From the NCBI RefSeq assembly GCF_008065095.1, contig NZ_CP042911.1, positions 4,800,001 to 4,832,000 on the forward strand: a DNA stretch of 32,000 nucleotides, written 5' to 3'. Under the pieces are notes generated by a model that ran no database searches, was not told where the DNA came from, and saw only the letters and a program-made list of their open reading frames with translations. Within the stretch, counting starts at the first letter, position 1, and each line of letters begins with the position of its first letter. This document shows, one piece after another, positions 16,201 to 22,231 of the stretch. This DNA is from Gemmata obscuriglobus. Lineage in GTDB: Bacteria; Planctomycetota; Planctomycetia; Gemmatales; Gemmataceae. The translations under genes and the position numbers were made by a program.

Positions 16201-16555
16201 GTGAACTTGGTGAAGTCCAAAGACCGCGTCGCCGACCACGGGGAGGTGTTCACCCCGGCGTGGCTCGTGGACGCGATGCTCGATCTGGTAAAGGATGAGA
16301 CCGAGCGCATTGATTCGCGCTTCCTCGAACCGGCGTGCGGAAGCGGCAACTTCCTTGTTCCGGTGCTGCGGCGCAAACTCGCGGCCGTGGAACTCAAGTA
16401 CGCGAAGTCTGACTTCGAGCGGCGGCACTACGCGATACTCGGGCTGATGTGTATCTACGGCATCGAGTTGCTCGCGGATAACATCGCCGAGTGCCGCGCG
16501 AACTTGCTGGAAGTCTTCGCAGAGTACTTGGGCCTGACCGCGTCGGACGAACTAC
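16201..16555 (+). pseudogene. SAM-dependent DNA methyltransferase-like gene, 5' part (IS3-disrupted)
   Basis: VNLVKSKDRVADHGEVFTPAWLVDAMLDLV...RFLEPACGSGNFLVPVL contains the FTP motif and SAM-binding motif I of gamma-class N6-adenine methyltransferases. The start could instead be GTG 16168. Confidence 0.6.
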
Positions 16556-16596
16556 AGTGGACCCCATTGTCTAGACCAAAAAGTTGCTATCCTTCG

Positions 16597-18095: not shown

Positions 18096-19701
18096 GCATA
18101 CAAGTCGACTTCGGGCTAAAGGGCCGCAACCCGGACGTGCTGACGTGCATCGCGAACCTCTCCAATGACGAGGTGTTTACTCCGCCTACGTTCGCCAACC
18201 AGATGCTCGACACCCTGGAAGCGGCCTGGGCGTCAGACCACAACGGCGCAATCCTGTGGGCCGACCCGAAGGTTCGATTCCTCGACCCGTTCACCAAAAG
18301 CGGCGTTTTCCTGCGCGAAATCGCTAGTCGACTCATCAAGGGTTTAGAAGGGTTAATCCCAAACCTACAAGCGCGCGTCGATCACGTCCTGACGAAGCAG
18401 GTATTCGGCATCGCCATTACGCACCTGACGAGCTTGCTCGCGCGGCGCAGTCTGTACTGCTCAAAGCACGCAAACGGTAAGCACTCCGTTGCAAAGTCAT
18501 TCACCACTGACGCCGGCAACGTCTGGTTCGAGCGGGTCGAACACACCTGGCAAGGCGAAAAGTGCCGCTATTGCGGGGCCAACGAGCGCGACTACGAGCG
18601 GGGTGACGGCCTGGAGTCTCACGCCTACGCGCTGCTACACACTGACGATCCTAAATCGCGGCTGGCCGAGATATTCGGAGGGGACATGCAGTTCGATGTC
18701 ATCATCGGCAACCCACCTTACCAACTGGGCAGAGCGGCGGGGACTCTGTAGGCCGTTTTGCGATGCCGATCTATCAAAAGTTCGTTGAGGTCGCCAAGAG
18801 CCTTGACCCGCGATATGTGGTGATGGTCACCCCCTCACGCTGGTTCGCGGGCGGCCGTGGACTTGAGGAATTCAGGCGGGAGATGCTTTCTGATCGGCGT
18901 TTACGTTGCTTGATCGACTACCCGGACTCACGAGAGGTTTTTGCGGGCGTCGATATCGCTGGTGGGGTTTCCTATTTTCTGTGGGACTCGTCTTGGAACG
19001 GTAAGTGCGCCGTTACCAACATTTACGGCAGCATCGCCAGCCCGCCGCTCAGTCGCCACTTGGACGAGTACGACATCCTTGTCCGCTACAACGAAGCGAT
19101 CCCAATACTTGAAAAGGTTCTCTGCTCAACTTCTGATGGTGCATTTGAAAGCTTGTCGAGTCAAGTTGCACCGATTCAGCCTTTTAGCATCCGAACGAAT
19201 TATCGCGGTGAAACCAGTAGCGACGGGATGGTCAACCCAGTGCTCCTCTACCAGAACGGCGGCACCAGTTTCATCGAGCGCGGTGCGATTCCGCGAAACG
19301 CTGAGTGGGTCGATCAGTGGAAGGTGTTTCTGTCTGGAACCTCAGCCGAACACGGTGGACAGGCAGACAAGAATGGTACCCGGCGAGTCTTTTCTTTGAT
19401 TTTGATCGGCAAACCTGGGACAGCTTGCACTGAAACGTATCTTGTCGCAGGCCGATTCGACACCGAGGCTGAAGCTACGAACTTTCGTGCTTATCTCCGC
19501 ACGAGGTTTGTTCGATTTTTCGTTTCGCTCCGAACGAACACGCAGCACTTGTACAGCGAGCGATTCGCCTTCGTTCCACGGCTTCCGATGGACTGCGAAT
19601 GGACCGATGAAGCCCTGTATAAGAAGTACAGACTTACGCAAAGCGAGATCGCGTTCATCGAAAACGTGATCCGGCTGATGCCAGAGGGTGACGATGAGTA
19701 A
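18092..19701 (+). pseudogene. Eco57I-family N6-adenine DNA methyltransferase (Mod-like), split by a frameshift just after the NPPY motif
   Basis: ORF 18092..18751 carries [33 protein letters not shown] (motif I) and [11 protein letters not shown] (motif IV), then stops at TAG 18749. ORF 18763..19701 (MPIYQKFVEVAKSLDPRYVVMVTPSRWFAGGRGLEEFRREML...) continues the same family 12 nt later in another frame. Confidence 0.8.
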
Positions 19702-22231
19702 GACCATCGCGGAGATTCTCGCGCCCAAGCCGGAAGCAAGGCCGCGCATCTACGCCTACGCCATCCACGACGACGCGCACAAAGGGTTGCTCAAGGTGGG
19801 GCAGACCACGCGCGACGTGAAGCAGCGCATCGCCGAGCAGCTCAAGACCGCCGCCATCGAAAACTACACGATCGAACTGGATGAGTCCGCCGAGCGCGCC
19901 GATGGGACCATCTTCACCGACCACGAAGTACGGGCGGCGCTGCGCAGAAAGAAGTTCGAGAACCCGCAACTGGAGTGGATGCGCTGTTCCGTCCCGGACG
20001 TGAAGACTGTTCTGGCGGAACTGCGCACCGGCAAGGCGTACACCGGCACGCACCACGAAACCTTCCCAATGCGGCGGGAGCAGGCCGACGCGGTACACAA
20101 GACATTCGAGCAGTTTCAATCGATCTGGCGAGAGAACCCGCACGCCGTCCCACGGTTCCTCTGGAACGCGAAGATGCGGTTCGGCAAGACGTTCACCGCG
20201 TACCAACTCGCGAAGAAGCTCGGCGCCAAGCGCGTGCTCGTGGTGACCTTCAAGCCCGCCGTCGAAGACGCGTGGCAGACGGACCTCGAATCGCATGTGG
20301 ACTTCAACGACTGGCAGTACCTGTCGCGCCACTCCGGCAGCGACCCGACGCAGGTTTCCGACTCGAAACCGCTCGTGTACTTCGGCTCGTTCCAGGATCT
20401 GCTCGGCCGCGACCCGGCGGGCAACATCAAGGCCAAGAACGAATGGCTCCACGCGGTTAAGTGGGATCTGGTGGTGTTCGACGAGTACCACTTCGGCGCG
20501 TGGCGTGAAACCGCGAAGGAGTTGTTCGAGGGCGAGGACGAGGCCGTTGCCAAGAAGGAAACCAAGCTCGAATACGGCAGCGGGCTGGAAGAGGTGAACG
20601 AGGACATCGGGGAACTATCAGAGAAGGAAGCCGAGTTCCTGCCGATCACCACACGAGCGTACCTGTACCTCTCGGGCACACCGTTTCGGGCGCTGTCCAC
20701 GGGTGAGTTCATTGAGGAGCAAATCTTCAACTGGACGTACACCGATGAGCAGCGCGCGAAGGAGGCGTTCGCGGCGGAGCACCCGGGCCAGCGTAACCCT
20801 TACGGCGCGCTCCCCCAGATGCGCCTGCTCACCTACCAGATGCCGGACGAGTTGCTCGCGATTGCCAGCGGCGGCGAGTTCAACGAGTTCGACCTGAACG
20901 CGTTTTTTGAGTCAACGGGCGCGGGGGAGACGGAGCAGTTCAAGCACAAGAGCGACGTCCAGAAGTGGCTGGACATCATCCGCGGCGGTTACATGACGAA
21001 GGAAATCGAGTACTTGAAGACGGGCACCCGCCCGCCCTTTCCGTATTCGGACGTGCGATTGCTACCGTACCTTCAGCACTCGTTCTGGTTCCTGCCGAAC
21101 GTCGCGGCCTGCCACGCGATGGCGAACCTCTTGGCCGAGAAGCACAACACCTTCTGGCACGAATACACGGTGATCGTTGCGGCTGGTGCGTCGGCAGGCA
21201 TCGGGCTGGACGCGCTGCCGCCGGTGCGAAAAGCCATCGGCAGCGGGTTCACAACCAAGACCATCACGCTCTCCTGCGGCAAGCTGACCACGGGCGTGAC
21301 GGTCCCGCAGTGGTCGGCCATTCTGATGCTGCGCAACCTCAAGTCGCCGGAGACCTATTTCCAGTCCGCGTTCCGGGTGCAGTCGCCGTGGAGCATCAAG
21401 AACCCGAACGGCGACAACCCGAACGAGGAGGAGGTGCTCAAGCCCATCTGCTTCGTGTTCGACTTCGCGCCCACCCGCGCGCTGCGGCAGCTCTCCGAGT
21501 ACGGAATCGGGCTGTCGCCGAACGAGTCGAACCCGGAGAACGCCGTTCGCGACTTGGTGTCGTTCCTGCCGGTGCTGGCCTATGACGGCGCGAACATGAC
21601 CCAGATCGACGCCGGGGGCATCCTCGACATCGCAATGGCGGGCACTTCGGCCACGCTGCTGGCTCGCAAGTGGGAGAGCGCGCTGCTCGTGAACGTGGAC
21701 AACGACACTTTGCGCCGCGTGCTGGACAGCCCCGAAGCGATGGACGCCGTTGAGCGCATTGAGGGCTGGCGCGCGCTGGGCGACAACATCATCGAGACCA
21801 TCATCAACAAAAGTGACAAGGTCAAGGAACTCAAGAACAAGGGCAAGGAACAAGAGCTGTCGAGCAAAGAGAAGAAGGAACTCAGCGACGAGGAAAAAGA
21901 GTACAAGTCGAAGCGCAAGCTCGTCCAAGAAAAGCTCATCAAGTTCGCGACGCGCATTCCCGCCTTCATGTACCTGACCGACTTCCGCGAGAACACGCTC
22001 CAAGACGTGATTACCAAGCTCGAACCGGACCTGTTCCGCACCGTTACCGGCCTGGATGTCAAGGACTTCCATTTACTTGTGCGGCTGAAAGTGTTCAACA
22101 CCGAGCAAATGAACCAAGCGGTCTTCGCCTTCCGCCGGTACGAGGACGCTTCACTGAGTTACACCGGCATCGAAAGTCACGAAGGGCTTTCGCGCGTCGG
22201 GTTGTACGACACCGTGGTCGCAAAGGAGTGA
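19694..22231 (+). CDS. T5orf172 (GIY-YIG-like) domain + SF2 helicase protein, putative restriction/Res-like subunit
   Basis: ATG 19694 overlaps the Mod stop by 8 nt. The N-terminal RIYAYAIHDDAHKGLLKVGQTTRDVKQRIAEQ is T5orf172/MUG113-like. Walker A is AKMRFGKTFTA and the DEAH box is LVVFDEYH. A helicase C-terminal region follows, then a K/E-rich coiled segment (KELKNKGKEQELSSKEKKELSDEEKEYKSKRK). Confidence 0.85.
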   Translation: MSKTIAEILAPKPEARPRIYAYAIHDDAHKGLLKVGQTTRDVKQRIAEQLKTAAIENYTIELDESAERADGTIFTDHEVRAALRRKKFENPQLEWMRCSVPDVKTVLAELRTGKAYTGTHHETFPMRREQADAVHKTFEQFQSIWRENPHAVPRFLWNAKMRFGKTFTAYQLAKKLGAKRVLVVTFKPAVEDAWQTDLESHVDFNDWQYLSRHSGSDPTQVSDSKPLVYFGSFQDLLGRDPAGNIKAKNEWLHAVKWDLVVFDEYHFGAWRETAKELFEGEDEAVAKKETKLEYGSGLEEVNEDIGELSEKEAEFLPITTRAYLYLSGTPFRALSTGEFIEEQIFNWTYTDEQRAKEAFAAEHPGQRNPYGALPQMRLLTYQMPDELLAIASGGEFNEFDLNAFFESTGAGETEQFKHKSDVQKWLDIIRGGYMTKEIEYLKTGTRPPFPYSDVRLLPYLQHSFWFLPNVAACHAMANLLAEKHNTFWHEYTVIVAAGASAGIGLDALPPVRKAIGSGFTTKTITLSCGKLTTGVTVPQWSAILMLRNLKSPETYFQSAFRVQSPWSIKNPNGDNPNEEEVLKPICFVFDFAPTRALRQLSEYGIGLSPNESNPENAVRDLVSFLPVLAYDGANMTQIDAGGILDIAMAGTSATLLARKWESALLVNVDNDTLRRVLDSPEAMDAVERIEGWRALGDNIIETIINKSDKVKELKNKGKEQELSSKEKKELSDEEKEYKSKRKLVQEKLIKFATRIPAFMYLTDFRENTLQDVITKLEPDLFRTVTGLDVKDFHLLVRLKVFNTEQMNQAVFAFRRYEDASLSYTGIESHEGLSRVGLYDTVVAKE

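Follow-up and report, generated by a model that had tools for sequence, protein, structure and literature searches.

A probable recent inactivation of a horizontally spread restriction-modification-like operon in Gemmata obscuriglobus

The Type ISP restriction-modification (R-M) enzymes LlaGI and LlaBIII combine an Mrr/PD-(D/E)xK nuclease, a superfamily 2 (SF2) ATPase of the double-stranded DNA (dsDNA) translocase type, a γ-class N6-adenine methyltransferase and a C-terminal target recognition domain (TRD). A related set of parts is distributed over three genes in Bacillus subtilis (the DnmA(YeeA)-YeeB-YeeC cluster) and in homologous Vibrio clusters, in which a large MmeI-like, TRD-bearing γ-class methyltransferase without a nuclease is encoded upstream of a separate SF2 helicase and a separate T5orf172/GIY-YIG protein. 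These clusters are horizontally acquired and lie in defence-island contexts, and Morgan et al. (2009) predicted that DnmA-YeeB-YeeC is a three-subunit R-M system (PMC2731913). Here we describe three genes, g1, g2 and g3, in a 32,000-nucleotide stretch of Gemmata obscuriglobus DNA (NZ_CP042911.1, positions 4,800,001 to 4,832,000 of the forward strand; hereafter the window), which form a system that is not Type III and whose nearest counterparts are a split Type ISP enzyme and the DnmA-YeeB-YeeC cluster. The locus is probably a recently inactivated copy of a horizontally spread, ATP-dependent R-M-like operon of split Type ISP architecture, in which the nuclease-motor protein g3 is harmless without the methyltransferase g2.

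The three same-strand genes are flanked by pheT (12875-15451) and a tyrosine integrase gene (22460-23497), and span 16201-18095 (g1, interrupted), 18092-19701 (g2, frameshifted) and 19694-22231 (g3, intact). The locus L003 of G. obscuriglobus CP025958.1, obtained by exact protein look-up, is identical to window 11688-30231. An earlier note, made from this DNA alone, had reported a translationally coupled, lower-GC block in which an IS3 element splits a methyltransferase-like gene, a frameshift after NPPY breaks an Eco57I-family N6-adenine methyltransferase gene and an 845-residue T5orf172-SF2 protein (GKT, DEYH) shows no lesion; each of these observations is, with minor corrections, borne out by the data below. 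The stop codon of g1 and the start codon of g2 share the ATGA at 18092-18095, and the g2 stop codon (19699-19701) falls in an 8-nt overlap (19694-19701) with g3, whose start is placed at the ATG at 19694 (845 amino acids, aa) as opposed to the mechanically listed GTG at 19688. Similar overlaps are present in 57 intact operons. The G+C content of the operon block is 0.56-0.62, compared with 0.68-0.71 in the upstream pheT region, and is lower still (0.48-0.60) downstream; a horizontal origin of the coupled three-gene operon is supported.

Table 1. Features of the g1-g2-g3 locus, in window coordinates
Feature	Coordinates	Strand	Evidence or remark
g1, 5' part	16201..16552	+	codons 1-117 and first base of codon 118; tblastn, Pfam
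IS3-family insertion sequence, 1238 bp	16553..17790	-	splits g1
IS orfB (rve DDE integrase core, HTH_21, rve_3)	16597..17367	-	Pfam, E = 3e-22
IS orfA (HTH_Tnp_1)	17438..17725	-	Pfam
g1, 3' part	17794..18095	+	second 'EIFTP' motif; stop overlaps g2 start (ATGA)
g2, 5' part, true frame	18092..18729	+	γ-class N6-adenine methyltransferase, NPPYQL; Pfam Eco57I, E = 3.8e-18
g2, 1-nt deletion site	18728..18730	+	Gly codon after CAA CTG / NPPYQL
g2, 3' part, shifted frame	18730..19701	+	rest of Eco57I domain, variable region, conserved C-terminus; Pfam, E = 3.7e-12
g3, putative restriction/translocase subunit, 845 aa, intact	19694..22231	+	no stop or frameshift
g3 T5orf172 (GIY-YIG-like) domain, aa 20-109	19751..20020	+	Pfam PF10544, E = 2.9e-9, 37.8 bits vs cut-off 20
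g3 SF2 ATPase core, about aa 126-600	20069..21490	+	Pfam ResIII aa 126-279; invariant columns
Hairpin, 16-bp stem	22257..22296		directly 3' of g3 stop; possible terminator

The set of modules is that of the Type ISP enzymes, a 1456-aa protein joins distant relatives of g3 and g2 in this order, and the PADLOC model PDLC03626 is a similar fusion. The enzyme is, however, split here into a modification subunit (Mod, g2) and a nuclease-motor subunit (g3) with Mod encoded first, the nuclease domain is T5orf172/GIY-YIG-like in place of Mrr/PD-(D/E)xK, and an extra conserved, non-catalytic protein, g1, is present. A profile search of the PDB detected no sequence similarity to the LlaBIII or LlaGI chains. 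With the DnmA-YeeB-YeeC cluster, compared by description and not by sequence, the locus shares a three-gene organization that provides a γ-class methyltransferase with a putative TRD and no nuclease, an SF2 helicase and a T5orf172 domain, but the last two are fused in g3, the methyltransferase is a 536-aa Eco57I-family protein and the third gene is the short g1. The earlier note had likened the operon to Type III systems. With such enzymes (EcoP15I and EcoP1I) it has in common the mod-then-res gene order, coupled expression and an SF2 ATPase-nuclease that lacks DNA recognition of its own; this subunit may likewise depend on Mod, and loss of Mod is tolerated. In contrast, Type III Mod subunits are β-class with an internal TRD while g2 is γ-class (motif order X, I, IV) with a putative C-terminal TRD, the restriction subunit (Res) of Type III enzymes has a C-terminal PD-(D/E)xK nuclease whereas the T5orf172 domain of g3 is N-terminal, and Type III systems have no g1. 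Consistent with these differences, the Pfam match of g2 is to Eco57I (PF07669), not to N6_N4_Mtase, and no Type III chain, Res included, was recovered in the profile search of the PDB. The Type III label is thus abandoned. Type I systems (HsdM/HsdS/HsdR) also have an ATP-dependent motor subunit whose nuclease is N-terminal, the structural matches of g3 include HsdR of EcoR124I, and the same genes (YhcG/DUF1016, RhuM and Fic) hitch-hike at the operon junctions; the Gemmata locus differs in having no HsdS (the TRD appears to lie within the methyltransferase), in the fold of the nuclease and in g1, which has no Type I counterpart. The view that this gene combination is not a textbook R-M type is upheld.

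The integrity of g3 was assessed against its homologues. The ATPase motifs are located at Q130, GKT 164-166, DEYH 263-266, SGTP 327-330 and Q557/R561 (motif VI); Walker A, DExH, motif III and motif VI are all intact, and every invariant or near-invariant residue, including G328-T329, is kept in an alignment with 55 diverse homologues (30-89% identity). The conserved residues of the T5orf172 domain, Y20, K34, G36, R45 and E94, are likewise all retained; among 56 diverse homologues Y20 never varies, and conservation reaches at least 90% at both R45 and E94. When aligned with 83 relatives, g3 from the window deviates at 5 of the 458 columns that are at least 97% conserved (Y140Q, G206D, D397N, A407S and S542A), close to the family median of 4, and none of these changes affects a conserved motif residue. 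Inactivating substitutions in the helicase motifs, which would have made the whole operon a fossil, were looked for and none was found. Pfam gave no significant match to the C-terminal 243 aa, and in g3 as a whole it detected neither a PD-(D/E)xK, HNH or Mrr domain nor a recognisable DNA-recognition domain. Foldseek searches with an AlphaFold2 model (predicted local distance difference test score, pLDDT, 80.9) returned Snf2/Chd1, XPB, ZorD, SauUSI, HsdR of EcoR124I and LlaBIII, the last at rank 40 (E = 1.7e-8); as the TM-scores are low, about 0.3, this fold likeness to dsDNA translocases indicates the class of the protein, not its family. Searches of the PDB by sequence gave no match with g3 alone, and the g3 profile matched only a marginal stretch of RapA.

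The methyltransferase g2 is disrupted by a single lesion. Pfam Eco57I matches both halves (66.6 and 47.1 bits, cut-off 25.3; E-values of 4e-18 and 4e-12 after rounding), while the MmeI_Mtase score, 17.6 bits, is below its cut-off of 27. Addition of one base after 18729 yields a 536-aa protein whose junction agrees with that of intact relatives (NPPYQLGQSGG[DE][AS]IGSFAMPIYQKF) that are 73-77% identical over 100% of their length, showing that the lesion is a single-nucleotide deletion in the Gly codon. In the unrepaired frame translation ends at the TAG at 18749-18751, the mechanical open reading frame (ORF) of the 3' part begins at the ATG at 18763, and g2 is split into products of 219 and 312 aa. 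All 66 intact g2 homologues contain NPPY and are single chains of 500-560 aa. The motifs follow the order FTP (X), motif I, NPPY (IV) and then a C-terminal variable region; the conservation profile is high over aa 1-280 and variable over about aa 280-440, a segment that may mediate target recognition, which would fit the specificity-bearing subunit of an R-M system; by comparison, g3 is much more uniform along its length. Sequence and profile searches of the PDB with g2 returned nothing relevant. Two other accounts of the frameshift were considered. Phase variation, raised in the earlier note, is implausible as the G run at the lesion is only GGG, and programmed frameshifting was rejected as there is no slippery heptamer at CAA CTG GGC AGA.

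The repaired g1 encodes a methyltransferase-like protein of 217 aa. Residues 1-118 of Nitrosomonas ureae g1 map to 16201-16554 in tblastn (78%) and g1 residues 118-212 to 17793-18083. The 5' part contains motif X (EVFTP), motif I (EPACGSGNF) and YGIELL, and Pfam N6_Mtase and MmeI_Mtase (27.0 bits, cut-off 27) cover motifs X and I only. None of 62 g1 homologues has a motif IV of the form (D/N/S)PP(Y/F/W), and their lengths are uniformly 207-227 aa; g1 is therefore no fossil but, as judged from sequence conservation, a conserved non-catalytic methyltransferase-like component whose short form is native, rather than a decayed methyltransferase. The earlier statement that both methyltransferase genes are broken thus holds in so far as g2 is frameshifted and g1 is split, but not in its implication that g1 had a catalytic activity to lose, NPPY being present in 0 of 62 homologues. 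The protein is paralogous to the N-terminus of g2 (E = 2e-4, motifs X to I). Residues ~145-190 of g1 homologues, in the C-terminal third, include a strongly conserved second motif, 'HEIFTP', preceded by 'F.RRDFRFD.LT'; its likeness to the leader at the N-terminus of g2 (E = 0.02) suggests that g1 originated when the 5' end of the methyltransferase gene was partly duplicated in tandem. Among PDB chains, a profile search matched g1 only to motifs X and I of Type I M subunits and M.BseCI (E = 0.04-0.08). An AlphaFold2 model built with 28 close homologues had a pLDDT of 48.8, too poor for a fold search. The Gemmata protein has one unusual substitution, G144E (repaired numbering; 16630-16632 region, 'LVHEDAL' at about 17833-17853), in an invariant H-G-D stretch where the Gly is found in 61 of 61 other homologues; it could be the first sign of relaxed constraint or a change that preceded the insertion.

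The insertion sequence (IS) in g1 has 13-bp terminal inverted repeats that match at 12 of 13 positions (TACAGTGGACCCC / GGGGTCCACTATA) and is flanked by a 3-bp target duplication, AAC (16550-16552 and 17791-17793). Deletion of the element together with one AAC restores an uninterrupted g1 frame. A run of nine T on the plus strand at 17456-17464 (A9 on the coding strand), near the 3' end of orfA in the orfA/orfB overlap, is a likely −1 slippery site, and NCBI annotates one joined 376-aa transposase. The helix-turn-helix domain of orfA, the DDE (rve) domain of orfB, the A-rich frameshift site, the inverted repeats and the 3-bp duplication all place the element in the IS3 family. Its ends read TA... 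where TG...CA is usual, which leaves 1-2 bases of uncertainty in the exact termini. The insertion may silence g2 and g3 by polarity.

Comparison with orthologous loci, which the earlier note had proposed, reveals the ancestral state of the operon. The family occurs in at least 600 species-representative genomes, a lower bound obtained from a scan of one genome per species in which 599 of 600 listed stretches encoded relatives. The scan together with other fetched loci provided 57 operons in which g1, g2 and g3 are all intact, with the same −4 and −8/−5 overlaps, and by this comparison three genes are the ancestral state; the intact operon of Nitrosomonas ureae encodes proteins of 215, 536 and 845 aa. 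Relatives of g3 that are 81-90% identical (81-87% for the best 80 of at least 599 stretches) are spread, judging by record titles, over about 17 phylum-level groups, which include Planctomycetota, Pseudomonadota, Verrucomicrobiota, Chloroflexota, Acidobacteriota, Actinomycetota, Bacillota, Cyanobacteria, Bacteroidota, Nitrospirota and Deinococcota, and full-length relatives, some as distant as about 33% identity, fall into 1152 clusters (E <= 1e-30). Plasmids from Sphingopyxis, Burkholderia, Rhizobium, Deinococcus and Corynebacterium carry the cassette, as do 35 IMG/VR contigs. The G+C content at third codon positions of g3 varies from 0.36 to 0.94 and follows that of the flanks (r = 0.62), while the median pairwise values for the family are about 1.3 for synonymous (dS) and about 0.10 for nonsynonymous divergence (dN), with dN/dS about 0.08. 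These values indicate that the conservation of g3 reflects strong purifying selection and wide horizontal transfer, beyond very recent spread. More tentatively, the family may be a closely co-adapted machine that is exchanged whole between phyla, with only the TRD diversifying. NCBIfam gave a family-level match for none of g1, g2 and g3.

The junctions of the operon show a further feature. Both g1/g2 and g2/g3 are recurrent insertion points for small accessory modules (L012 2789-4431, L036 3886-5996, and also L125, L021, L149, L023, L063, L083, L134, L112 and L047). The modules comprise IrrE/Peptidase_M78 with DUF4411 (a 1635-bp insert seen at several unrelated loci), a YhcG/DUF1016 PDDEXK nuclease, KilA-N, a DUF5615 PIN-like protein, RhuM and RhuM with Fic, and in L036, L008 and L032 the insert is accompanied by a duplication of the first codons of the gene that follows. 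Hitch-hikers of the same kinds have been reported within Type I hsd operons (PMC9881135).

Physical and functional coupling of g3 and g2 is supported by relatives in which the two proteins are fused. The Enterococcus faecium plasmid pDY28-optrA (NZ_MW207670.1, L091 4262-9371), which carries the resistance genes optrA and erm(A), encodes a two-gene version of the system that consists of a g1 homologue (248 aa, 35% identity, E = 7e-36) and, after an 8-nt overlap, a 1456-aa T5orf172-helicase-Eco57I fusion that matches g3 over residues 5-641 and g2 over residues 965-1452. The fusion has its own FTP, motif I and NPPY; fused relatives are distant (26-34% identity). As the plasmid retains g1 beside the fusion, g1 stays with the system in both architectures. 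Plasmid records with similar matches number 32 in Enterococcus and 9 in Lactococcus. A further hint of fused relatives comes from PDLC03626 ('REase_MTase_IIG', 1359 aa), which is matched by g3 over aa 157-778 and by g2 over aa 199-529. The PADLOC search suggested in the earlier note returned, for the three proteins, only this generic model and MTase_II; R-M-type models were thus matched but no named non-R-M system was found.

Loss of Mod with retention of g3 is recurrent. At least five lineages besides the window have a broken or missing g2 and an intact g3: g2 is frameshifted in L006 and L067, and has been largely deleted together with g1 in L005, L062 and L068. In L005 (7208-8008, 10535-18538; a Planctomycetes metagenome-assembled genome) g3 lies beside only the last ~140 codons of g2, and after it come hypothetical genes, one HTH_17 gene and a phage-type integrase. 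Both g2 and g3 are broken in L007. Together with the 1456-aa fusion, the repeated loss of g2 from loci that keep g3 indirectly makes dependence of the nuclease-helicase on Mod for targeting, one of the solutions offered in the earlier note, the best-supported explanation of how the host tolerates an intact g3.

The inactivation of the Gemmata operon is recent, as the broken genes carry almost no extra substitutions (2 deviations at 58 columns of at least 97% conservation in g1 and 2 at 114 in g2, against a family median of 1 each) and the terminal-branch dN/dS of g3, 0.103, resembles that of L089 (0.107), a relative with an intact operon; the value for the Mod-deleted L005 is 0.26, the highest among the lineages compared. 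From the single point lesion in the Mod sequence (about 1.6-2.3 kb), we estimate a probability of roughly 0.2-0.3 that neutral decay would have left the 2.5 kb of g3 free of lesions. Since the lesions are recent, an intact g3 is statistically unsurprising. The paradox posed in the earlier note, that loss of modification with retained restriction is normally lethal, thus persists in weaker form than stated, and requires only Mod-dependence of g3 and possibly polarity of the IS. The Gemmata locus itself is an ordinary, young case of pseudogenisation, and the family is more interesting than the locus.

These data are consistent with the following model. In the ancestral system g2, with the only target recognition region, would methylate adenine at its site and so protect the host, and g3 would join g2, translocate on dsDNA by means of its SF2 motor and cut unmodified DNA with its T5orf172/GIY-YIG-like domain. 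A non-catalytic third subunit, g1 may, more speculatively, act as an adaptor or as a sensor of cofactor or methylation state. In Gemmata an IS3-family element would have entered g1 and one base would have been lost from g2. As g3 has no DNA-recognition module of its own it would be harmless without g2, and it would not yet have decayed since the lesions are young and the IS may also cut operon transcription. Here we infer the nuclease activity of the T5orf172 domain, the dependence of g3 on g2, the role of g1 and the polar effect of the IS.

Several observations weigh against this model. Cleavage by T5orf172 is an assumption, and the nearest tested analogue, B. subtilis DnmA-YeeB-YeeC, displayed no restriction or phage protection (PMC9973331). 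No paper describing the g1-g2-g3 family, and no biochemical or genetic test of it, was found in the literature searched, although such absence is no proof that none exists. Polarity of the IS gains nothing from the promoter scan, which was empty, or from the terminator count, which was below random expectation; both are uninformative on this point. Decay is not one-directional, as there are copies with a broken Res gene and an intact Mod gene: in L018 a stop codon interrupts g3 while both g1 and g2 are intact, and g3 is also broken in L149/L150 and L166. The g3-anchored census is, in addition, biased towards intact g3. A g1-anchored census of metagenomes, used only qualitatively, contained 23 fully intact loci and both Res-broken and Mod-broken cases, but its classifier was confounded by accessory cassettes and duplicated gene starts at the g1/g2 junction. 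As both censuses are biased or confounded, the claim made here is limited to the viability and recurrence of Mod-less, Res-intact copies, with no asymmetry implied. Finally, g3 is well conserved at the g3-only loci (1-2 deviations at conserved columns), which could point to a Mod-independent role.

The rival explanation that survives best, although unlikely, is that the family does not cleave DNA at all and works by epigenetic marking or by exclusion (for example as an orphan-like methyltransferase partnered by a helicase, or as a BREX-like block that involves no cleavage), such that loss of Mod was never dangerous and 'restriction subunit' is a misnomer. The B. subtilis result agrees with this proposal, as does the finding that the methylated motif is not avoided in phages; the same study describes T5orf172 as a largely uncharacterised, DNA-binding-type domain (PMC9973331), and the PD-(D/E)xK, HNH and Mrr domains sought in g3 were not found. 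Conversely, Y20, R45 and E94 of the T5orf172 domain fit a GIY-YIG-type active site, the junction cassettes (YhcG/DUF1016, RhuM, Fic, KilA-N and IrrE with DUF4411) are like those in Type I hsd operons (PMC9881135), the cassette is carried on plasmids and in defence-type contexts, and a Vibrio DnmA/YeeB homologue altered phage sensitivity, according to PMC9973331.

It is distinctly unlikely that g3 is intact through ongoing selection, and not through recency of the lesions, because it serves an independent function, whether as partner of a methyltransferase from another locus or as a helicase-nuclease that acts in defence or repair without Mod. At the loci with a lost or broken g2 (L005, L062, L068, L006 and L067) g3 does show no more than 1-6 deviations at conserved columns, its terminal-branch dN/dS in the window is 0.10, and purifying selection on the family is very strong (median dN/dS 0.08). 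The low terminal value, however, says little, as that branch mostly predates the lesions, and the Mod-deleted L005 has the higher terminal dN/dS of 0.26. No intact Gemmata paralogue of g2 was present among the best 120 matches to the repaired protein, g3 has no recognisable DNA-recognition domain, and in the fused relatives it is covalently tied to the methyltransferase and TRD.

A still-active system, in which the g2 frameshift is recoded or the 219-aa and 312-aa halves assemble and g1 is dispensable, is very improbable. The second half of g2 has its own ATG, 12 nt past the premature stop, and the 348-aa PADLOC MTase_II model PDLC03375 starts just before NPPY, which hints at split forms. The break, however, lies inside the Rossmann fold directly after the catalytic NPPY, with 16 residues lost or garbled, at a position that offers no slippery heptamer for recoding, and the intact homologues are without exception (66/66) single chains. 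Furthermore, g1 is also disrupted, its strict conservation argues that it is needed, and the IS lies between the likely promoter and g2/g3.

That the lesions are sequencing or assembly artefacts has next to no credibility: the location of the frameshift in a short G run provides no more than the general possibility of error, while the finished genome CP025958.1 has the identical sequence, the same g3 is recorded, at the level of the protein entry, as GobsT_40740 on a second G. obscuriglobus contig, and two independent Logan read assemblies are identical to the window over 17765-22343 (L001, a contig in at least 20 runs, including the IS/g1 junction and the frameshift) and 17857-22343 (L002, including the frameshift), both splitting g2 into the same two products, which shows that the lesions are real and disposes of the suggestion of an assembly error, no intact Mod gene having been seen.

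If the preferred reading, a recent inactivation with g3 dependent on g2, is correct, the Mod-less, Res-intact copies and the Res-Mod fusions would mean that the nuclease-motor is targeted via the methyltransferase, so that the logic of Type I, ISP and III enzymes would apply to a nuclease of the GIY-YIG type as well. If g1 is indeed a third subunit, a conserved methyltransferase paralogue without catalytic activity would add a new kind of regulatory element to R-M. More tentatively, and with greater doubt than attaches to the fate of the Gemmata copy, the family may constitute a distinct class of ATP-dependent R-M system, a split Type-ISP-like enzyme with a GIY-YIG-type nuclease and an obligatory dead-paralogue subunit, g1, that possibly licenses the motor-nuclease. 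The conservation of g3 across phyla is unusual for a defence gene. As removal of the IS and addition of one base would repair the Gemmata copy, the family is an attractive and easily reconstituted model.

The 3' side of the locus has features of its own. Homology with the closest relatives ends exactly at the g3 stop codon, and comparison of these relatives revealed neither a conserved cassette edge nor an att site on this side. No RNA gene was called in the region by ARAGORN or Rfam. Between the g3 stop codon and the integrase gene, on the minus strand at 22312-22368, a sequence like the 3' part of a tRNA-Leu(CAA) was assigned by eye, with the anticodon loop CTCAAAA, a long variable arm and the T-arm GGGTTCGAGTCCCAC; ARAGORN and Rfam do not call it. 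This piece is probably an att remnant of an integrative element, which would probably run rightwards through the low-GC region and a serine recombinase. A 236-aa minus-strand ORF (23611-24321) with no match in Pfam or NCBIfam lies within 23500-24500, the G+C minimum of the window (0.485-0.53), which falls inside the presumed element beside the integrase gene.

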